From: a virus
Length of the DNA stretch: 57,742 nucleotides
Strand: one strand, 5' to 3'
Virus record (IMG/VR): IMGVR_UViG_2616645027_000001
The stretch's first letter is position 1, and every line of letters starts with the position of its first letter. Positions 1 to 57,742 of the stretch are shown here, one piece after another. A program made the position numbers and the translations under genes. The notes beneath the pieces were generated by a model. The model saw nothing but the letters and a program-made list of their open reading frames with translations, ran no database searches and was not told the DNA's origin.

Positions 1-77
1 CAAATGGGCCGACAAAAACACGTTCGTTATTACAAAGGACGGGGATCAAATTTTAAAAGCGGAGTTTTCAGAATGAA
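1..77. repeat. Terminal overlap identical to 57666..57742 (circular-assembly closure)
   Basis: The first 77 nt recur exactly as the last 77 nt. Genes are continuous across the junction. Confidence 0.9.
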
Positions 78-408
78 ACACCAAATATTATTGTCTTTAC
101 TGATCTTGTGGTCAGTTACGGTCCTCTCAGCTTGCGGAGGTTCAGGAAGTTCATCAGGTGGCGGCATGGAGGTTGTTCCTAAGCAATGCTTTAAAAATGC
201 AAGTGAGTGGCGGCGACAGCATAATCGAGCCCACGCTATCTTAGGTGGTTGTGTTTCTTTAGTTCATCCAGAATGCACGCGAGAAAAACGTCAGCGCGGG
301 TGGAGAAGGCCAGCGACTGAATTTCATGCTAATAGTGGTCGAAATGTTAAAGCTTGTTATTCAGATGCAGAATTACGCGGCAGTGCCGAGGGGTTTCCAC
401 ATGGGTAG
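73..408 (+). CDS. Early lipoprotein, 111 aa (superinfection-exclusion candidate)
   Basis: ATG 73 lies inside track ORF 4..408, with GGAG at 61-64. MKHQILLSLLILWSVTVLSAC is a signal peptide with lipobox LSAC. The ATGA overlaps the stop of the YD-repeat gene across the junction. Confidence 0.6.
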   Translation: MKHQILLSLLILWSVTVLSACGGSGSSSGGGMEVVPKQCFKNASEWRRQHNRAHAILGGCVSLVHPECTREKRQRGWRRPATEFHANSGRNVKACYSDAELRGSAEGFPHG

Positions 409-643
409 TATCGAAATAAATGTATATCTGGCAATAGCCGCGACGGGCGTAATACTATACTGTTTTTTATGTCTATTGGAGTGGTTCTTAGTTGCTCAAG
501 TGACGTGGTTAAGGTTATTCACGTTTGAGTTTTGGATGCTTGTCTTGCTGATACCGAGCCTATTTGTGAGTTACTTGTATTGGCGCGTTGATGATGCGTG
601 GCTACAGCTGTACGAAATGATTTCCGGCGCGGGGTGGCAGTAA
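401..643 (+). CDS. Small integral membrane protein, 80 aa
   Basis: ATG 401 follows GAGGGG and overlaps the upstream stop (ATGGGTAG). Two to three hydrophobic spans are present (YLAIAATGVILYCFLCLL, FWMLVLLIPSLFVSYLYW). Confidence 0.5.
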   Translation: MGSIEINVYLAIAATGVILYCFLCLLEWFLVAQVTWLRLFTFEFWMLVLLIPSLFVSYLYWRVDDAWLQLYEMISGAGWQ

Positions 644-645
644 TC

Positions 646-1101
646 ATGAACAATAAACAAATAGACAGGTCCGCTTTTATCGGAACTGAGTTTGATTGTG
701 AGTTCACAGATGATAACGATTCCGACTGGTATCCAAGTCCGTTAACTCGTATAACGTTTGTTACCGACGGTGAAGTACAAACCGACAAGCAGTATCACTG
801 TTGTGTAGATCAAGGGGTAAGGTATTGCCGACCCCGCCTGAGCAAACCTCAAGTGTTAACTGATTACAGTAAGGTGCTTGTTCATGGGTTGGTGTGGAAT
901 GTTTGTGCTAATAATTATAAACAACTTAACAACGAGCCTTTCATATACGAAAAGCGAAGTAGCAATGCGGTTAAGTATATTTGTGGTAACGACAATTACA
1001 CTGTCCAATGGCTAGAATGCATCGGAGTAGAAGCTGGTAAAGGCTACGACGAATGGGCAGAGGATCACGCTATGCCGCTTATTGAATTGGGGAGTGTGTG
1101 A
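646..1101 (+). CDS. Hypothetical protein, 151 aa
   Basis: ATG 646 is in frame within track ORF 598..1101, preceded by GGGGTGG, 3 nt after the upstream stop. Confidence 0.55.
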   Translation: MNNKQIDRSAFIGTEFDCEFTDDNDSDWYPSPLTRITFVTDGEVQTDKQYHCCVDQGVRYCRPRLSKPQVLTDYSKVLVHGLVWNVCANNYKQLNNEPFIYEKRSSNAVKYICGNDNYTVQWLECIGVEAGKGYDEWAEDHAMPLIELGSV

Positions 1102-1226
1102 TGTCTTTAACCGGAAGAAAAAGATACAGAATTGAAAATCGCTTATTTAGGAGACCTTTATGTGTTTTACAGCTAGAAATTAAACATAAGGTTTTTAGTA
1201 GTGCTGCGGGGAGGGTGAGAAATGAT
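1101..1226 (+). CDS. Small basic protein, 41 aa (below track cutoff)
   Basis: TGATG overlaps the upstream stop and the ATGA overlaps the next start. Sequence begins MSLTGRKRYRIENRLFRRPL. Confidence 0.3.
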
Positions 1227-1425
1227 TGAATTTAAAAAATTGGATGCTGACATTATAGGAGTTCATAGCGATCAAATAACTCGCACAATAGGGAATATTT
1301 TTAGCCATGATGAAATTCAGCCAGCTCACTGCACCTTAGACGATATGGTGTGCTGGTATGCTGACGACCTAAGAGCCATAGCAGACAAGCTAGACGAACT
1401 AAACGCGGAGGCTGATAATGGCTAA
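1222..1425 (+). CDS. Small protein, 67 aa, paralog of 1628..1825
   Basis: Shares the N-terminus MIEF and the C-terminus DLRAIADKLDEL. The 46-nt segments 1366-1411 and 1769-1814 differ at one position. Confidence 0.55.
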   Translation: MIEFKKLDADIIGVHSDQITRTIGNIFSHDEIQPAHCTLDDMVCWYADDLRAIADKLDELNAEADNG

Positions 1426-1594
1426 CGAATACAACCCGCCTGCTGATTGGAGGCCTCAACATTGCGGCACATTAACAATGCCAATACTGGACGACATTAC
1501 CGAAGATTGTTTCAATAACACGGTTATAAGCTTTGGTATTCAGCATTCCATTGTTTTGGATTGCGAAACTCGTGAGGTGATTGACAATGACTAA
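1418..1594 (+). CDS. Small protein, 58 aa (below track cutoff)
   Basis: The ATG overlaps the end of the upstream gene. The ORF ends in AAT GAC TAA inside leader-element copy 1. Confidence 0.35.
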   Translation: MANEYNPPADWRPQHCGTLTMPILDDITEDCFNNTVISFGIQHSIVLDCETREVIDND

Positions 1595-1633
1595 GAAACT
1601 AGGTATGAGTGTATTGGAGGGTTTGGAATGATT
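1572..1633 (+). repeat. Leader element copy 1: SD plus 14-codon mini-ORF (MTKKLGMSVLEGLE) plus SD/ATG of next gene
   Basis: GTGAGGTG..ATGACTAAGAAACTAGGTATGAGTGTATTGGAGGGTTTGGAATGATT closely resembles 3681..3740 and 1964..1993. Confidence 0.6.
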
Positions 1634-1825
1634 GAATTTACTAAAGATAAAATCAAAACCCAATGGGTCGTAAAAATAAAATCTTGTATTAGTGGGATTA
1701 TAACCAGTTTCAACGATGGATATGTTTACAACCACAATCCAGACTATAAATATATTTTGCACGCAAGCGACCTAAGAGCCATAGCAGACAAGCTAGACGA
1801 ACTAAAAGCGGAGGTTTGGGAATGA
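1628..1825 (+). CDS. Small protein, 65 aa, paralog of 1222..1425
   Basis: Track ORF. GGAGGG SD. The ATGA overlaps the mini-ORF stop. Confidence 0.55.
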   Translation: MIEFTKDKIKTQWVVKIKSCISGIITSFNDGYVYNHNPDYKYILHASDLRAIADKLDELKAEVWE

Positions 1826-1971
1826 TTTTAAAAAGATTTAGGTGGTATCGCAAGATGAAGGGCGGCTATTGGATTAAGTATCATTACCTTGGCTGGCAGC
1901 AGGTGGGCAAGTTGGACCATGACTTTAGGCGTTCGCTTTATGAATCAGAGAGCTGGGTTAATAATGACTAA
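1822..1971 (+). CDS. Small basic protein, 49 aa (below track cutoff)
   Basis: ATGA overlap at 1822. Sequence begins MILKRFRWYRKMKGGYW. Ends AAT GAC TAA inside leader-element copy 2. Confidence 0.3.
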   Translation: MILKRFRWYRKMKGGYWIKYHYLGWQQVGKLDHDFRRSLYESESWVNND

Positions 1972-1993
1972 GAAACTAAATATGAGTGTATTG
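1964..1993 (+). repeat. Leader element copy 2 (fused in frame to the following gene)
   Basis: ATGACTAAGAAACTAAATATGAGTGTATTG matches copies 1 and 3. Confidence 0.55.
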
Positions 1994-2410
1994 TCAGAAA
2001 ATATGTTAGTCGAAGTTCATACAATGATTGGCGGTTTTTGGGGCTGGTTTATACATAAAAATCAAAAAGACGGTTTTTATGTTGAAGGGTTTTCTAATCC
2101 AAGACCAATCAGGCCGCTATCAAATCAGTGGTATTTCAACGACGGCAGCATGGTTTTACCTGATGGGCTGGTCTGCAAAGTGTCGAACATGCCGGAAGAT
2201 TTCATTTATAAGGTTTGGACGAGCGATAAATATGGTAAAGGGTTGTGGTTGATTTCTTCAAAAAATAAAGACCAAGCACTGCACAAGCTTTGTTTTGAGA
2301 AAGCTGACTACGGGTTATCTACCAAAGGTAATGCAATAAAAATACTAGGCGTAACCGAAGAATACAGAGAAGCTGGCGAGGCTTTGAGTATGGAGGTAAT
2401 CGAGATATGA
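1964..2410 (+). CDS. Hypothetical protein, 148 aa
   Basis: In frame with track ORF 1889..2410. I prefer ATG 1964 (MTKKLNMSVL), which is the conserved leader ATG. Confidence 0.5.
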   Translation: MTKKLNMSVLSENMLVEVHTMIGGFWGWFIHKNQKDGFYVEGFSNPRPIRPLSNQWYFNDGSMVLPDGLVCKVSNMPEDFIYKVWTSDKYGKGLWLISSKNKDQALHKLCFEKADYGLSTKGNAIKILGVTEEYREAGEALSMEVIEI

Positions 2411-2916
2411 ACACACAAGAAGAACTAGCCTATGCATTAGCTAAGCACGCACACGCTGGGCAAAAGTACGGCGACCATGATTATTTTGAGTATCACGTTT
2501 TAGGCGTGGCTAATCAGTTTGACCACCTTTGTTATTACGAAACAACCCGCGACAAAAACAACAGCGTCAGAATGAAGTGTAAAAAGTGTGGGCATGACGG
2601 GTTGAAATATCAAGATCGTTGCGCGGGTTACGACTCCAAAGCATACATTGTAGCCTTGTTACATGATGTTGTTGAAGATAGTCATATAAGTATGTTGACC
2701 ATAGAAAATTTATTTACAGAGGGTATTAGAAACTCGGTTAACGCAATGTCTAATATTTATGACGACACTTATGAAGAGTATATTTCGTATTTATCCAGAA
2801 ATAAAACGGCAATTAAAGTCAAAATAGCAGACCTTAAATTCCACCTATCGCAACCTGAAGTACGGCATAAAGAGCGGTACACGAAGGCCTTGCGATTATT
2901 GGAGGAATCTTTATGA
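2407..2916 (+). CDS. HD-domain hydrolase, SpoT/RelA-hydrolase-like (small alarmone hydrolase candidate)
   Basis: HAHAGQKYGDHDYFEYHVLGV and ALLHDVVEDS match the (p)ppGpp-hydrolase HD signature. A Cys-containing insert (CKKCGH..C) lies between them. Confidence 0.65.
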   Translation: MNTQEELAYALAKHAHAGQKYGDHDYFEYHVLGVANQFDHLCYYETTRDKNNSVRMKCKKCGHDGLKYQDRCAGYDSKAYIVALLHDVVEDSHISMLTIENLFTEGIRNSVNAMSNIYDDTYEEYISYLSRNKTAIKVKIADLKFHLSQPEVRHKERYTKALRLLEESL

Positions 2917-3176
2917 GCAACCCTAAGACTATTTACATTGATGACGAGCAATCGATAGAAAACCCCGCAGGGTTGTGGACTGATCACCGAGAGCTACCCA
3001 GCGACAAAGAATACCGCCTAGTAGGTGAGTGTGTTTGGGAGAAAGATAAATCCTATACGACGTTTACGGTTTTCCTGGCTAAATGCGGCAATCAATTCGA
3101 TCATGATGATGCTGACTTTAAACCTGATGAAGATTTATTCTGCTCATGCGGCGACAGGATAAAGGTGGAGTCGTGA
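2913..3176 (+). CDS. Hypothetical protein, 87 aa
   Basis: Track ORF with ATGA coupling to the upstream gene. Confidence 0.5.
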   Translation: MSNPKTIYIDDEQSIENPAGLWTDHRELPSDKEYRLVGECVWEKDKSYTTFTVFLAKCGNQFDHDDADFKPDEDLFCSCGDRIKVES

Positions 3177-3361
3177 GAGTATATTTTTTCTATGATTGTT
3201 GCTTAACAGGCTGTGTCTCGACATCGACAAAAAACTGGAAATACAGAGGCTTTGGTGTTTCATTCGGGAAAAAAGAAGATATGAGGTGCTTGAACTTAGG
3301 ATTGTTTTTTGTTTCTTTGACGATTGGATGGCTATCTGACGCCGATAAGGTGGAGGGCTAA
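3173..3361 (+). CDS. Hypothetical small protein, 62 aa
   Basis: GTG 3173 follows GGTGGAG. GTGA overlap with the upstream stop. In frame with track ORF 3146..3361. Confidence 0.3.
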   Translation: MRVYFFYDCCLTGCVSTSTKNWKYRGFGVSFGKKEDMRCLNLGLFFVSLTIGWLSDADKVEG

Positions 3362-3577
3362 GTGATTAATTATCGGTACATCGCGTTAGAGAAGTTAAGA
3401 AAGATGATAAGTTTAGGTTAAAGCGCGACCACTTAAGAGTGGCAACATTTATTCGAGGTTATCCTTTATACACAAGGGCCAAAGATACGAGCGAGAGTTT
3501 GAAAAGATATTTGCTCAACGCGGCCTAGTCACCAAAGCCAAGCAGTTTGCTAACGATATTATGGAGGGTATAGAGAA

Positions 3578-3697
3578 ATGAAAGACAGATCAGGATTATA
3601 CGTAATGGTATTTATAGCAATGATTGCCTCCTGTAGTGCCGATAACAATACAGCGAGGATAATTAAGATTGCTAACACCTGTGAGGTGCAGAAATGA
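3578..3697 (+). CDS. Mini-lipoprotein, 39 aa (below track cutoff)
   Basis: GGAGGG SD. MKDRSGLYVMVFIAMIASC carries lipobox IASC. The stop overlaps the ATG of leader-element copy 3. Confidence 0.4.
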   Translation: MKDRSGLYVMVFIAMIASCSADNNTARIIKIANTCEVQK

Positions 3698-3740
3698 CTA
3701 AGAAACTAGATATGGGTGTATCGGAGGGTTGGGAATGATT
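3681..3740 (+). repeat. Leader element copy 3: SD plus mini-ORF (MTKKLDMGVSEGWE) plus start of next gene
   Basis: GTGAGGTG..ATGACTAAGAAACTAGATATGGGTGTATCGGAGGGTTGGGAATGATT. Confidence 0.6.
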
Positions 3741-4130
3741 TGCCCTAATTGTAAAAGTACAAAATCAAAGGTGTTAGATACCGGAAGGGAAGGCGAAATA
3801 ATACTTCGTAGACGAGAGTGTAAGGAGTGTGGTGAACGGTTCAACACGTGCGAAGCGCTGACACAGGTTAGCGGTACCCGTACTAAGAAAACAAACAGGC
3901 AAAAACGTTTACTCAAGTCCACGAACGCGATAGCTGCATCAAAGGTTCGTTCTGTGAAGAACAATGCGTGTCTAATATCTGGGGTGGAAGCTAAGCGTAA
4001 GAGAGCAGAGAGGACCAAGCGCCGTCGGGACGCAGAGGATATGGAGGAGTATTATTCAGAAGAGTATGTGGACACCCTTGTGTCCGATGACGAAGTTAAA
4101 GACCTATTAGAATTATTTGGAGAGAACTAA
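3735..4130 (+). CDS. NrdR-like zinc-ribbon protein without ATP-cone, 131 aa
   Basis: MICPNCKSTKSKVLDTGREGEIILRRRECKECGERFNTCE mirrors the NrdR N-terminal CxxC..CxxC ribbon. The C-terminus is a basic then acidic tail. I prefer ATG 3735 over the track TTG 3729. Confidence 0.55.
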   Translation: MICPNCKSTKSKVLDTGREGEIILRRRECKECGERFNTCEALTQVSGTRTKKTNRQKRLLKSTNAIAASKVRSVKNNACLISGVEAKRKRAERTKRRRDAEDMEEYYSEEYVDTLVSDDEVKDLLELFGEN

Positions 4131-4345
4131 TGTGGATATTATTGATGATAGCTTATTTTGCTATGGGAATTAAAGTTGCACTTGATTTTAACAAGACGGA
4201 CGACCCTGCACTTGACTGCCCTGTAAATAGAGCAGGTTTATTTATAATCCATATAGTTCTTGGCCCCATTGTATGGTTGATTGAGTCACCGACTTTAAAC
4301 CTTTTTAGCAGAATCGGAAAGTATTTGGAAAAGATAAGTAAATAA
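4130..4345 (+). CDS. Small membrane protein, 71 aa
   Basis: TAATG coupling and two hydrophobic spans. Confidence 0.5.
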   Translation: MWILLMIAYFAMGIKVALDFNKTDDPALDCPVNRAGLFIIHIVLGPIVWLIESPTLNLFSRIGKYLEKISK

Positions 4346-4360
4346 AACAGGAGAGAACTA

Positions 4361-4609
4361 ATGCCCACACCATTAAGATACTACACTAATATGACCGAAG
4401 CAGAAGCGTTGAATAACCTTATCGAAGACGCCGGACTAGATTTACAAGAGGCACGGTTAGTCAAAGAAAAGTTGCATTCCATCAGCATAGAAAAAGCTAC
4501 GGATATGGAACAAGTCATTGAAGCCATTGAAGTCATTGAAGACATGGGGCACGCTATATTATGCTTACATGATAGAATAGATGAAGCAAAATATATCCTA
4601 GGTAATTAA
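4361..4609 (+). CDS. Hypothetical acidic protein, 82 aa
   Basis: Track ORF with a GGAGAG SD. Confidence 0.5.
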   Translation: MPTPLRYYTNMTEAEALNNLIEDAGLDLQEARLVKEKLHSISIEKATDMEQVIEAIEVIEDMGHAILCLHDRIDEAKYILGN

Positions 4610-4611
4610 AC

Positions 4612-4806
4612 ATGGTTGATATAACAAAGTGCTTGAATGAAGATTGTGTGTTAAAGTTGCACTGTTACCGATACACATCCGAGGCCGGAGGCAGGCAGTC
4701 ATATTCCGATTTTAAATATGATAATAATCATGGCTGTGACTATTACTGGCCAACCTTAGATAAAGAAAATAGAGAACGTTTTGAAGATACGGATAACAGT
4801 AAGTGA
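4612..4806 (+). CDS. Small Cys-rich protein, 64 aa
   Basis: Has the pattern KC..(E)DC....C.RY....CDYY, which I recall as recurrent in small phage proteins. Confidence 0.5.
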   Translation: MVDITKCLNEDCVLKLHCYRYTSEAGGRQSYSDFKYDNNHGCDYYWPTLDKENRERFEDTDNSK

Positions 4807-4978
4807 GGGCACCCACGTTATTAAACAAACTAAGCTCCCTAGAATGGAGTTTATCATAAAACTATGTGATCAACTAACACCCGATATAAAACAGGTAATA
4901 ACCTTGCTATCCGATCTAAATAGTGGTAAAGTACTAATTTACAAATACAATCAATACACGATTACCGGGCAAGTATGA
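4781..4978 (+). CDS. Hypothetical small protein (start uncertain: TTG 4781 or ATG 4844)
   Basis: Track ORF with no convincing SD at either start. Confidence 0.3.
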   Translation: MKIRITVSEGTHVIKQTKLPRMEFIIKLCDQLTPDIKQVITLLSDLNSGKVLIYKYNQYTITGQV

Positions 4979-5421
4979 AGATTAAAAAACTTAAAGAACA
5001 GATTCGTAACTTACGCAAGTTAGACGTAATCATCAGCAACAAGATAATTGAGGAGATCGACACAAGTCACTTAAATGACTGGATTACAAACGAGCCGTGC
5101 GGCGCTAGGGGGTGTATCTTAGGCGATTATGTGTTGCAAAATAAAATGACCCCCGATAATGCAGCTTTGTGGGAAACCGAAGTTTTACCTAATGGTAATG
5201 TACGGATTGGTAATCTCAGGAAATTTAGCGAATATTGTCAGTACTTAGACGCAAAAAAAGAGTTCGGTGTTAAAGTGCCTCGTGATTCTGCGGGTTACGG
5301 AGAGAATTCCGAGCACGCTATTTTTACAAGTGAGGATATCAGTTACGAAAAGCGTTTAAAGCTGGTGCGTAAGCAAATTAAGAAGTTGACTGCAAAGCTA
5401 AAATCGTATACCGAAAACTAG
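4975..5421 (+). CDS. Hypothetical protein, 148 aa
   Basis: Track ORF with ATGA coupling. Confidence 0.55.
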   Translation: MKIKKLKEQIRNLRKLDVIISNKIIEEIDTSHLNDWITNEPCGARGCILGDYVLQNKMTPDNAALWETEVLPNGNVRIGNLRKFSEYCQYLDAKKEFGVKVPRDSAGYGENSEHAIFTSEDISYEKRLKLVRKQIKKLTAKLKSYTEN

Positions 5422-5422
5422 T

Positions 5423-5737
5423 ATGTTAATTTCAGTAGACTACGACGGTACCTATAGCGCCGACCCTGAGACTTTTGACTTAGTTATAACCGAGTTCCAA
5501 ACCAATGGTCACGAGGTCATCATAGTTACTGCTCGGACAACCGATGATCCGGTCAAAATAAATCCTAATCTGGACATAGCTGTATACTACACAGAGGGAG
5601 CCGACAAAGACCCTTATATGGTAGACAACCACGGGCTAGACGTTGATATCTGGATTGAGGATCGCCCTCAGTCGGTTGGTAAAATAGATAATTGGAAATT
5701 CGATCAAGTTAAAAAAATGTGGTACCAAGAGTCATGA
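5423..5737 (+). CDS. HAD-superfamily phosphatase-like protein (nucleotidase candidate), 104 aa
   Basis: N-terminal VDYDGT matches HAD motif I (DxDxT). IIVTAR and WIEDRP are positioned like motifs II and IV. Confidence 0.45.
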   Translation: MLISVDYDGTYSADPETFDLVITEFQTNGHEVIIVTARTTDDPVKINPNLDIAVYYTEGADKDPYMVDNHGLDVDIWIEDRPQSVGKIDNWKFDQVKKMWYQES

Positions 5738-5777
5738 AAAACGACTGTATTGGTTTAATAGAAAGCAGAGGAATATA

Positions 5778-5996
5778 ATGAGAAAAGTTAATCCTAATTT
5801 CGGCATAAAGTTTTGGAAGAAGGGGCAGCGCATGTCTTCTGTTCAAGACCTTAGAACCGGGTTTATCTTATATTGGCCTAAGCAGAGAAATGCACCTGCT
5901 GGTAGGCAGGTCGATGAGAACATATTACGGTTCATGTCTAACGTACAACCCCCGCCGGAGCCGGAGCCGCTGCCACCTCACATAACAGTAAAATAA
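5778..5996 (+). CDS. Hypothetical protein, 72 aa
   Basis: Track ORF with an AGAGGAA SD. Confidence 0.4.
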   Translation: MRKVNPNFGIKFWKKGQRMSSVQDLRTGFILYWPKQRNAPAGRQVDENILRFMSNVQPPPEPEPLPPHITVK

Positions 5997-6065
5997 TGCT
6001 TTACATACTCCCCTAACCGTGATACTTTATGAGTAGATTAAACAACTAATATTGAGAAAACAATT

Positions 6066-6521
6066 ATGACGCCTTTTGAAGTACAATTTCCCACTGCGGA
6101 CGAAAACACCGTTTTTATTTACCATCGTAACGACCACTATAGTAGTGATAAATATAATGGGGAGTACACTCTTCGACACGATGACGGAAGTGTGTGCCCC
6201 AGTTTTAATAAAGTAGATGGAAACGGTTACTGTTATTTATGGTTACGCTATATGTCCATAAGAGAGGAGTTCAGCCACGGGGACCCTATCGTTTACATGT
6301 CTGGTGGGGAATCGAAGAAAGGGACCTATGTTGGTAGGACACACGGATTAAATAACATTGAGGTTGATGTGTTTATTGTGATCCATGAGGACGGACATTT
6401 GACCTTTGCCTCGCATTGTCAACACCCGCCTTCTACTGCAACCGTTACTTTATCGGATGGCACCAAGGTTGAGCTCAGTAAAGAAAGTGTTGATGCTTTA
6501 CGCGAGGGCATTACTAGCTGA
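6066..6521 (+). CDS. Hypothetical protein, 151 aa
   Basis: Track ORF. Confidence 0.55.
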   Translation: MTPFEVQFPTADENTVFIYHRNDHYSSDKYNGEYTLRHDDGSVCPSFNKVDGNGYCYLWLRYMSIREEFSHGDPIVYMSGGESKKGTYVGRTHGLNNIEVDVFIVIHEDGHLTFASHCQHPPSTATVTLSDGTKVELSKESVDALREGITS

Positions 6522-6834: not shown

Positions 6835-6904
6835 TTTTATACAAATTAAGGCACAAGTTGCATTTAGGAATTTCCCATCCTCACAAATAATAGGAGATAT
6901 TAAA

Positions 6905-7387
6905 ATGAGTAAGCAAGATTTTGAAGAAGAGTTAGCAGTAATAATAGAAACGGTTCGTGTAACGGCACTCGCGAATAAGACGGCGCAGGTTATGTCTAAA
7001 CATGTTCCTCATGCAATAGTTCTTAACTTCTTTTTTGATAACGGAAATGAAGGAGAGGCGATGACACAGCACTTGGATAGCGTGGGTAGCTCTGATGAGA
7101 TGTTAGAAGCATTTGTAGAGCTAGATAAGTTACCTAAAGAAGGGCCTTTTAGTGAGCCGCGTTTTGACTTTGATCTAAAGCAAATGCAGAAAGCGCTGCC
7201 AGTAATGGTCAGGTTTATGGATGCCTTTATCTATAACCTTGGCACCACAGCTGTAACTTTATCAAAATTACCAAATGAAATGGACAGGTTACTTTCAGAA
7301 AAGGATAAAGATAATATGTTTTCTCCGGCTAAATTACGATTTGAGGATGAAGGGCAGGAAGAGCAGGAAGAGCAGGTAATCCACTAA
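6905..7387 (+). CDS. Hypothetical protein with acidic C-terminus, 160 aa
   Basis: Track ORF. Its SD context ATAGGAGATATTAAA is identical to the one at 8603-8617. Confidence 0.55.
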   Translation: MSKQDFEEELAVIIETVRVTALANKTAQVMSKHVPHAIVLNFFFDNGNEGEAMTQHLDSVGSSDEMLEAFVELDKLPKEGPFSEPRFDFDLKQMQKALPVMVRFMDAFIYNLGTTAVTLSKLPNEMDRLLSEKDKDNMFSPAKLRFEDEGQEEQEEQVIH

Positions 7388-7904: not shown

Positions 7905-8123
7905 ATGAATATTAACGATTTTTCAGATGAAGTGGAGTCGCTAGGTTTCACTTGGGATATTGGCTGGCGCGGCAGAGCTGATATTGAGGTGCGCATATGG
8001 AATTGGCCAAGTGTGATACATAGGCAGACCGTAAACAAGAGCAGCGACATTGATTGGGCTTGCGACATTGTTTTAAACAAGATTAGAGCGACCCAACCAA
8101 CTAACGTAGAGAGTGAGATATGA
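7905..8123 (+). CDS. Hypothetical protein, 72 aa
   Basis: Track ORF. Confidence 0.45.
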   Translation: MNINDFSDEVESLGFTWDIGWRGRADIEVRIWNWPSVIHRQTVNKSSDIDWACDIVLNKIRATQPTNVESEI

Positions 8124-8585: not shown

Positions 8586-8617
8586 CACTACTGTGCTGGA
8601 ACATAGGAGATATTAAA

Positions 8618-8950
8618 TTGAACAAGTCAGATATAGAGGATTTTTTCCGCATCGCATTTATTGCTGAAAAAGCAACCATTTTATCCGAGAAAGAAAAATC
8701 TAAATATAAAATTAGCTCTATTTTGGAAATAGAAACTAAAGACGGTCGCGGTACTTTCCATATTGCTAATGTTTTGGGTAGTGACATTAAACCCGATAAC
8801 CGTGTTGAGCGCATACGTGAGTTTGTTGAGACATATAGTCAGGGTGGGCCGTTCGCAACAATCGAAGGGGTTAATGCTTCTCGTCAGGTAGGCGAAGAAA
8901 TTTTACAATTCATAGACAAGCTGGAGAAAGAGAATGATAGACCAAATTAA
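8618..8950 (+). CDS. Hypothetical protein, 110 aa (TTG start)
   Basis: Track ORF. The TTG follows the same 15-nt SD context as gene 6905. Confidence 0.5.
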   Translation: MNKSDIEDFFRIAFIAEKATILSEKEKSKYKISSILEIETKDGRGTFHIANVLGSDIKPDNRVERIREFVETYSQGGPFATIEGVNASRQVGEEILQFIDKLEKENDRPN

Positions 8951-57076: not shown

Positions 57077-57741
57077 GTGACCGGGTCATTGTTAATGTGG
57101 AAGGGGACTATAATGGTTTTATCGGTTGGAATCTTGAAAGCCAAGGGATAGCATTTACTTACGATGAAAACGGGAACATGTTAACCTACACTTATCCCGG
57201 TGGTAATGCTTATTCTTGCATTTACGATGAAAACGGAAACATGTTAACAGAGACTCATCCCGGCGGTGATGTTTATTCTTACACTTACGATGAAAACGGG
57301 AACAGGTTAACAGCGACTCCTCCCGGTGGTGATGTTTATTCCTACACTTACGATGAAAACGGAAACATGTTAACAGCGACTTATTCGAAGGATGAAACAG
57401 TTTCTTACACTTACGATGAAAACGGGAATAGGTTAACAGAGACTTATCCTAGTGGTGAGGTTGTTTCTTGGACTTACGATGAAAACGGGAACATGTTAAC
57501 CTACACTTATCCCGATGGTAGGACAGTTTCTTACACTTACGATGAAAACGGGAATAAGTTAACAGAGACTTATCCTAGTGGTGAGGTTGTTTCTTGGACT
57601 TACGATGAAAACGGGAATGTGCTAACCTACACTTATCCTAATGGTAGGACAGTTTCTTGGACCTACAAATGGGCCGACAAAAACACGTTCGTTATTACAA
57701 AGGACGGGGATCAAATTTTAAAAGCGGAGTTTTCAGAATGA
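57073..57741 (+). CDS. Minimal YD-repeat (Rhs-repeat family) protein, 222 aa
   Basis: Eight 21-aa repeats with core Y-x-YDENGN-x-LT. No signal peptide and no toxin or core domain. Confidence 0.8.
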   Translation: MSDRVIVNVEGDYNGFIGWNLESQGIAFTYDENGNMLTYTYPGGNAYSCIYDENGNMLTETHPGGDVYSYTYDENGNRLTATPPGGDVYSYTYDENGNMLTATYSKDETVSYTYDENGNRLTETYPSGEVVSWTYDENGNMLTYTYPDGRTVSYTYDENGNKLTETYPSGEVVSWTYDENGNVLTYTYPNGRTVSWTYKWADKNTFVITKDGDQILKAEFSE

Positions 57742-57742
57742 A
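57666..57742. repeat. Terminal overlap identical to 1..77
   Basis: Exact 77-nt identity. Confidence 0.9.

Follow-up and report, generated by a model that had tools for sequence, protein, structure and literature searches.

Repeated gene-start sequences in the early region of an uncultured phage: one intact accessory gene and two 14-codon fragments joined to a second motif

The virus record IMGVR_UViG_2616645027_000001 in IMG/VR (57,742 nucleotides (nt), the whole of which we call the window) contains a short sequence that recurs three times at gene starts between positions 1572 and 3740. Here, we describe this triplicated element and the genes around it. The window is a complete genome of ~57.7 kb with a terminal redundancy of 77 bp (1-77 = 57666-57742). 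Its PHROG matches include a tape-measure protein, a major head protein, a large terminase, a primase, a helicase and a DNA polymerase, and the phage is an uncultured siphovirus. Among deposited phages, we found no DNA match to positions 1-6000 and none to the two accessory proteins tested, and the primase reaches 21-25% identity at most. The early and replication genes are located on the + strand, from 1 to 17 kb. Between 1 and ~5 kb, very small genes follow one another closely, their stop and start codons mostly overlap, and Shine-Dalgarno (SD) sequences of the GGAGG type lie within the 3' end of the preceding gene.

The core of the element is 30 nt long, ATGACTAAGAAACTANNTATGRGTGTATYG, and is found at 1587-1616, 1964-1993 and 3694-3723, always on the + strand. 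It did not occur in any of 100 shuffled sequences, and no further site was found in the window at up to three mismatches. Copies 1 and 3 share ~62 nt, with 92% identity over 48 nt (1586-1633 / 3693-3740). The original prediction had reported three copies, and all its coordinates are right. The features at the three sites are listed here; the protein family and the motif J that they refer to are described below.

1572-1633, + strand: copy 1, a composite junction, with a first SD sequence (SD1) GTGAGGTG at 1572-1579 and an open reading frame (ORF) of 14 codons, mini-ORF 1, at 1587-1631 that consists of the family 5' end (1586-1616) and J (1616-1633).
1628-1825, + strand: gene of 65 amino acids (aa) beginning MIEF, downstream of copy 1; its body does not resemble the family (matched in score by 124 of 500 shuffles).
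1963-1993, + strand: copy 2, the family 5' end heading an intact gene; most homologues start within 0-2 residues of its Met.
1964-2410, + strand: the intact family member of 148 aa (profile E 5e-44), whose stop overlaps the ATG of an HD hydrolase gene.
3681-3740, + strand: copy 3, a composite junction, with SD1 GTGAGGTG at 3681-3688 and mini-ORF 3 at 3694-3738 that consists of the family 5' end and J (3723-3740).
3735-4130, + strand: NrdR-type zinc-ribbon gene, downstream of copy 3 (Pfam PF22811, E 2e-12), a conserved anchor gene in relatives.

The sequence GTGAGGTG precedes copies 1 and 3 (starting at 1572 and 3681), and the two 14-codon mini-ORFs read MTKKLGMSVLEGLE (copy 1, 1587-1631) and MTKKLDMGVSEGWE (copy 3, 3694-3738), each followed by a stop codon. 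We refer to them as stubs. The SD1 of the stubs, GAGGTGAT, matches the anti-SD and is placed 5-7 nt before the ATG. Each start overlaps the stop of the upstream gene (ATGACTAA at 1587-1594, ATGA at 3694-3697), and each stop lies in an ATGA overlap (1628-1631, 3735-3738) with the next gene, i.e. the 65-aa gene or the NrdR-type gene. A GGAGGG is contained in each stub, 6-7 nt ahead of the ATG of the downstream gene. By layout, both would count as translationally coupled cistrons, starting on an upstream stop and stopping on a downstream start, and the coupling proposed in the original prediction would fit this layout. In copy 2, the ATG at 1964 instead begins the 148-aa ORF (1964-2410). The upstream ORFs end within the element in all three cases (1418-1594 with TAA, 1822-1971 with TAA, 3578-3697 with TGA). 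On these points, namely the stubs with their own SD, the ATGA overlap and the SD of the next gene, the fusion of copy 2 to a 148-aa ORF, and the termination of the upstream ORFs, the original description is borne out by the sequence.

Four positions differ between the stubs (G/D, S/G, L/S, L/W), and all four differences are non-synonymous. Three of them fall at conserved positions of the family, i.e. G6 (family D) in copy 1 and G8 and S10 in copy 3. These differences would fit a relaxed constraint on the peptide and are too few for a test. In the stubs (1568-1610, 3675-3719) a long-range stem of 7-9 bp is also predicted, in which the bases before GAGGUG pair with UAUGRGU(GU), in codons 6-8. 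This stem has one compensatory change (U:A to C:G), and its folding z-scores are not significant.

From sequence comparison, the core is the 5' coding end of an unnamed phage protein family (MSVLPDGF) of ~120-150 aa. A search of 5.8 billion proteins identified 15 homologues of the 148-aa product, and a profile search of 1.84 billion cluster representatives identified 69 representatives of the family; no model in Pfam or PHROG matches it. An N-terminal block, MxK(R/K)(L/I)DxSVLPDGFLIE (opening MxKR(L/I)DMSVLPDGFLIE), is present in every member read. After it, hypervariable stretches alternate with two conserved blocks, the central RPALNxWHFNDGSMVLPDGLVVE and the C-terminal AVKILGVTxEYxxHGxxLGMEVIEL. 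Both of these are present in the gene of copy 2 and absent downstream of copies 1 and 3. A regular-expression scan of the relatives found the N-terminal block only at the head of full-length genes. The original prediction had named, as the alternative to its own reading, that the element is the 5' end of a duplicated protein family. For the 30-nt core this alternative is essentially correct, since the core encodes the conserved N-terminus of the family.

Besides the intact gene, the window encodes a second paralogue:

646-1101, + strand: divergent second family paralogue of 151 aa, 38% identical to L001 7139-7588 (E 6e-25); its 5' end has no DNA similarity to the element.

The two subtypes of the family, represented by the intact 148-aa gene and by this paralogue, are linked by homology comparison. 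Two paralogues are found in relatives too, in L001 at 5836 and 7139 and in L005/L006 in tandem. A contig of 8,111 bp encodes an identical protein (P0001), and one of 48,970 bp encodes two paralogues (P0003, P0014). G003, the record that contains L001, has the family, and the complete 59-kb relative G002 lacks it. A model of the 148-aa protein predicted by AlphaFold (predicted local distance difference test, pLDDT, 74.6) consists mostly of beta-strands and a C-terminal helix. No Foldseek match to this model was found at E<=0.001, and the best VIA-align Z was 4.1. Profile matches to long SpaA and M56 proteins were judged spurious, as they cover short repeated stretches and Pfam assigns these proteins to unrelated families. 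In the tandem pair (L005 3140-4033 = L006 5980-6873) the paralogues share islands of 98% identity (50 nt, the 5' end), 91% (47 nt, the FNDGSMVLPDGLVVE block) and 90% (91 nt, the 3' end), and the segments between the islands cannot be aligned, so that the family resembles a conserved scaffold with hypervariable inserts.

Across phages, the start of the family is conserved as protein and its codons differ at synonymous sites, whereas the three core copies in the window are identical at all synonymous positions. This points to recent copying within this genome. When a hidden Markov model (HMM) of the family was run over all + strand frame fragments from 1 to 17.5 kb, the intact gene was found first and the two stubs were next best, matching profile positions 1-11 (copy 1, 6.2 bits) and 1-9 (copy 3, 4.8 bits). 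No family-like sequence was found in these frames downstream of either stub. By these comparisons, copies 1 and 3 are isolated 5' fragments and not family members.

After codon 9-10, the family sequence in the stubs is replaced by the motif J, GGAGGKTTKGGAATGATT, which carries an SD, a spacer and an ATGATT start (the ATGA overlap). Because of this replacement, the stubs look like recombination joints. J has four matches in the window at up to three mismatches, compared with 0.17 expected, and all are on the + strand, at gene starts and within 1210-3740. Besides those in the stubs, the matches are:

1810-1827, + strand: J without a family 5' end, between the 65-aa gene and a 49-aa ORF (ATG 1822).
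1210-1227, + strand: diverged J (15 of 18 positions), before a 67-aa gene beginning MIEF (ATG 1222).

Over 31 nt, the family part of copy 1 matches copy 2 at 94% identity; the J part of copy 1 has 88% identity with 1210-1234 (25 nt), and the J part of copy 3 has 95% identity with 1809-1828 (20 nt). A further repeated island of 47 nt, R2, is found at the 3' ends of two small genes, and its two copies are 98% identical:

1365-1411, + strand: R2 copy 1, which encodes DLRAIADKLDELNAE at the 3' end of the 67-aa gene and shares 95% identity with L013 (39 nt).
1768-1814, + strand: R2 copy 2, located at the 3' end of the 65-aa gene and continuing into J at 1810.

The order J, R2, family 5' end occurs twice, with a spacing of 377-406 nt, and this recurrence points to the footprint of a tandem unit of ~400 bp. 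The interiors between the identical islands are unrelated, so duplication alone cannot account for the history of the unit, and segments must also have been replaced or exchanged. The whole composite of copy 1 is found again in copy 3; it thus either arose once and was then copied or was rebuilt by recombination among the repeats.

The C-terminal tail (D/F)LRAIADKLDELNAE is common to small early proteins with unrelated N-terminal bodies. It is found in the window at 1365-1411 and 1768-1814, in L013 at 6089-6127 (reverse complement) and in L012 at 3980-4213. At the DNA level, the two copies in the window share 98% identity and L013 reaches 95%, and in L012 the sequence has diverged at synonymous sites.

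Some further candidates for family remnants were rejected. The 65-aa gene is not a degenerate family member, as the sole common feature is the tetrapeptide FNDG (hhalign probability 2%) and the 124 of 500 shuffles mentioned above score equally. The stubs could also be seen as family genes with an internal deletion that joins the N-terminus to the C-terminal MEVIE and stop, but the likeness of their ends (EGLE and EVWE, each before the stop) can be explained by the need to encode GGAGG and ATGA. Finally, a putative decayed paralogue at 3361-3580 proved to be the relic of another gene.

Compared with the relatives, this part of the genome is plastic. The NrdR-like gene is conserved (62% identity in L009, 44% in L001), and the gene directly upstream of it differs, being the stub in the window, a 107-aa gene in L001 and a 65-aa gene in L009. 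Between L013/G001 and the window, the DNA is similar only in islands of 30-92 nt with 87-95% identity, located at gene 3' ends or initiation regions, R2 among them; the gene bodies are unrelated or 36-37% identical. G002 shares the island 3516-3560, in a different gene order. The block upstream of copy 3 also contains the remains of a gene:

3417-3578, + strand: 3' relic of a gene, 54 codons without ATG, GTG or TTG, ending in FIHKGQRYEREFEKIFAQRGLVTKAKQFANDIMEGIEK and a stop; ~100 nt upstream of copy 3 and just upstream of the 39-aa ORF.

Intact homologues of the relic are found in G002 (L016, reverse strand) and in L013 (reverse strand, 4360-4656), and it testifies independently to gene decay or deletion in this part of the genome. 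It falls in an otherwise unexplained gap of 217 nt (3362-3577). The island 3512-3584, which encodes the tail QRGLVTKAKQFAND, is ~89% identical in the window, in G001:C1:19896-19962 and in G002:C1:57581-57625. In each of these three phages a different gene follows the island, and it has a different place in the gene order. The 39-aa ORF at 3578-3697, directly upstream of copy 3, has a lipoprotein-type signal (...FIAMIASC|SAD...), with a predicted mature lipopeptide of ~20 residues.

Every relative that carries the family reuses an initiation-region sequence of its own at unrelated gene starts:

L005: AACGGAGTAAATGAAATGA, 4 copies.
L005: ACCAACTAAGAGAAWACTATGAA, 3 copies.
L002: AACAACGGAGTAAATAACATGA, 3 copies.
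L001: GGTKAGCGATGAA, 3 copies.

These start-associated repeats are 13-23 nt long (SD, spacer, ATG) and each is found at 2-4 unrelated gene starts. The sites are 3143, 3579, 4341, 4555 and 7393, 7657, 7871 in L005, 1608, 1909, 2300 and 3267, 3478 in L002, and 5828, 7570, 7925 in L001. In L001, a repeat of the initiation region of the family gene lies at 7917-7937 and opens an ORF of just 11 codons (MNQTGKIKLYS and a stop). This third copy in L001 is an orphan start analogous to the stubs of the window.

The explanation that we favour, with moderate confidence, is that the stubs are relics of recombination or duplication that passively relay ribosomes between genes, and not a dedicated regulatory device. 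The element comprises the translation-initiation region of a small family of accessory early genes together with their first ~10 codons; it heads one intact member (copy 2) and survives as two orphaned 5' ends (copies 1 and 3) joined to J. The stubs would be recombination joints, left behind in a hyperplastic early region when segments were duplicated or deleted locally or when cassettes were exchanged. The joints would have stayed in frame, keeping the SD, the overlap with the upstream stop, an open frame of 14 codons and the overlap with the next ATG. As the joints are in frame, a stub has its own SD and an overlapping start and stop, and as these are preserved, ribosomes are probably passed along the operon. 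We infer here both a history of recombination and a relay: ribosomes would be handed through the stub from gene to gene by translational coupling, and this would be a tolerated or mildly useful consequence of the joint.

Coupled overlapping cistrons (ATGA or ATGxxTAA) occur in phage and bacterial operons, and at most junctions from 1 to 5000 of the window the same arrangement is seen, with a stop/start overlap and the SD inside the upstream coding sequence. The stubs differ from ordinary coupled cistrons in that the intermediate cistron has just 14 codons and is a fragment of a real gene. For the recombination, the closest precedent is gp67/gp68 of mycobacteriophage Island3, where a duplicated gene end of ~50 bp flanks an inserted or deleted gene and was read as recombination between ~50-bp sequences close to gene boundaries (Pope et al. 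2011, PMC3029335). In Island3, like here, a piece of a gene end is repeated at a neighbouring junction, and there it lies on either side of a small gene that a relative lacks. However, the repeated piece in Island3 is a 3' end, while here it is a 5' end (the initiation region and 10 codons) in three copies, two of which survive as 14-codon ORFs fused to J.

Several points weigh against this explanation. Both stubs have the same length and the same composite make-up, which needs either one origin followed by a second copying, or selection. Non-functional DNA is usually lost fast from phages, yet the stubs keep their SD, frame and exact overlaps. The unrelated interiors of the putative ~400-bp tandem unit mean that simple duplication is insufficient. 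Finally, the searched collections contain no close relative that would show the ancestral state of the two junctions.

If these features are due to selection, the ~60-nt unit (SD1, 14-codon ORF, second SD, ATGA) could be a portable cassette for translational relay, which, in a long early operon where promoters are few, ties the following gene to translation of the gene before it; that it derives from the start of a family gene would be incidental. We consider this unlikely, though it would account for the strong SD1 of both stubs, for their start on the upstream stop, for a length of exactly 14 codons and for the stop on the next ATG. Also, the composite precedes two unrelated genes, and the relatives reuse identical initiation regions at 2-4 unrelated gene starts. 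However, there are two copies only, and none was found in other phages (IMG/VR, GTDB genomes, L013). Further, each downstream gene is preceded by a strong, ideally spaced GGAGGG SD of its own and does not require coupling, and there is no sign of sequence constraint, which is a weak argument with four differences only. The more specific proposal, that the unit is a selected, mobile ribosome-relay cassette put before newly acquired early genes in this marine phage group, is in our view decidedly unlikely. If it were true, new early genes would be plugged into an existing translationally coupled operon, and the start-associated repeats that each family-bearing relative has would be the same strategy.

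Repeated motifs at initiation regions are documented in Cluster K mycobacteriophages, where start-associated sequences (SAS) and extended SAS (ESAS) are known and their role is still unknown; the 13-bp SAS motif has 93 listed sites across Cluster K genomes and is conserved across three subclusters (Pope et al. 2011, PMC3203893). This precedent speaks for a relay cassette. J and the repeats of the relatives resemble SAS, as they are short, asymmetric, in one orientation, contain an SD core and are located at or just before the starts of unrelated non-structural genes. All four matches of J have this position (+ strand, gene starts), unlike the 30-nt core, which is downstream of the ATG. On the other hand, SAS have many copies and are conserved across phages, while J has four copies and is absent from L013, and the relatives have other motifs. 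A further difference is that J includes the start codon and that the triplicated core is located inside coding sequence.

The original prediction had also proposed a recombination linker that shuffles early gene cassettes. In the sense of Susskind and Botstein or of the promoter early stem-loop (PeSL) elements, such a linker would be a patch of homology shared by co-infecting phages for cassette exchange. This proposal stands in part, as the region is hyperplastic and the relatives share only short DNA islands at gene ends with it. Small sets of genes lie between direct repeats of 30-48 nt (copies 1 and 2 are 377 nt apart, copies 2 and 3 1730 nt), the relatives differ in which genes they carry and in what order, R2 is 95% identical to L013 despite unrelated gene bodies, and other gene-end islands (3512-3584 etc.) are 87-93% identical to G001 or G002. 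The core itself is not supported as a linker. Exact-pattern scans of IMG/VR and GTDB genomes gave 0 matches to the 30-nt core in other phages, it is absent from L013, and the start of the family is conserved in the relatives as protein and not as DNA, with codons that differ at synonymous sites. This search in related phages had been suggested together with the original prediction. The cross-phage sequence support for exchange is real for the R2 and 3512-3584 islands and absent for the triplicated core, and we regard a linker as very unlikely to explain the element.

In T4-type phages, PeSLs are intergenic units with a promoter and a terminator, which have been proposed as substrates for the gain and loss of cassettes (Arbiol et al. 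2010, PMC2839356). The likeness consists in repeated sequences of ~50-100 bp that flank small accessory ORFs in hyperplastic early regions. However, the element has neither the sigma-70 early promoter nor the stem-loop terminator of a PeSL; it is coding sequence with a ribosome-binding site.

The regulatory leader that the original prediction put forward would be a cis-acting RNA site, either an operator for a translational repressor or a leader peptide with an attenuator, that co-regulates three early cistrons. The DNA-level identity at three initiation regions of one operon and the weak long-range stem predicted in copies 1 and 3, with its compensatory change, would fit such a site. But RNA folding, a check proposed from the start, found no significant structure, as the 60-81-nt units fold no better than shuffles (z +1.45 to -0.74). 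In the elements, no stable hairpin was found, no promoter-like site and no terminator was found nor any excess over shuffles, and there was no match in Rfam. Leader peptides and attenuators are expected to have alternative structures or a terminator and a peptide that is conserved or rich in regulatory codons, and neither was seen: terminators and anti-terminators are missing, and the peptides of the two stubs are not conserved, differing at 4 of 14 positions. Moreover, copy 2 lacks the upstream half of the element, and the conservation of the core is already explained by its coding sequence. The leader is left unsupported, and we regard it as highly improbable.

Equally improbable is that copy 1 is a frameshifted family gene, in which a mutational or programmed -1 shift at G_GGT_TTG would join the stub to the 65-aa gene: the heptamer lies in the correct frame, a -1 shift there leads into the frame of the 65-aa gene and continues the family consensus, and the HMM score of the fusion rises from 7.1 to 9.6 bits, but this gain is small (rank 3 of 110 control N-termini), the 65-aa body is not family-like, the heptamer is found in copy 1 only and no stimulatory structure was seen 5-9 nt downstream. 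The heptamer is located at 1619-1625 in mini-ORF 1, and copy 3 has GGGTTGG instead. The product of the shift would read ...SVLEGFGMIEF, resembling the family consensus SVLPDGFLIEL.

Read as relics of recombination, the stubs show how a tightly packed, translationally coupled phage operon can tolerate the gain and loss of genes: as the start and stop at each joint still overlap the neighbours and the frame stays open, the relay of ribosomes would remain unbroken. The element also provides a worked example of how a "conserved junction" that is a gene fragment can be told from a true regulatory element. Of more interest than the element itself may be the wider pattern, in which each related marine phage reuses initiation regions of its own at several unrelated gene starts and near-identical gene-end islands are found between phages with unrelated gene bodies. 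This pattern touches on a long-standing question, namely whether conserved linker sequences are used in phage mosaicism. The family behind the element is uncharacterised, with conserved blocks split by hypervariable segments, and is often present in several copies per phage.

Other junctions in the early arm of the window are repeated as well. The initiation region GGAGAGAACTAATG occurs at 4119-4132 and 4350-4363 (14 of 14 positions), and ATAGGAGATATTAAA(A/T)TGA... occurs at 6890-6927 and 8603-8640 with 79% identity over 38 nt. The junctions at 54-76 and 1803-1825 are 87% identical; the former, TAAAAGCGGAGTTTTCAGAATGA, ends the first early gene, which has YD repeats, and the latter ends the 65-aa gene. 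The two genes end in ...KAEFSE and ...KAEVWE, with the stop codon overlapping the next ATG in each case.

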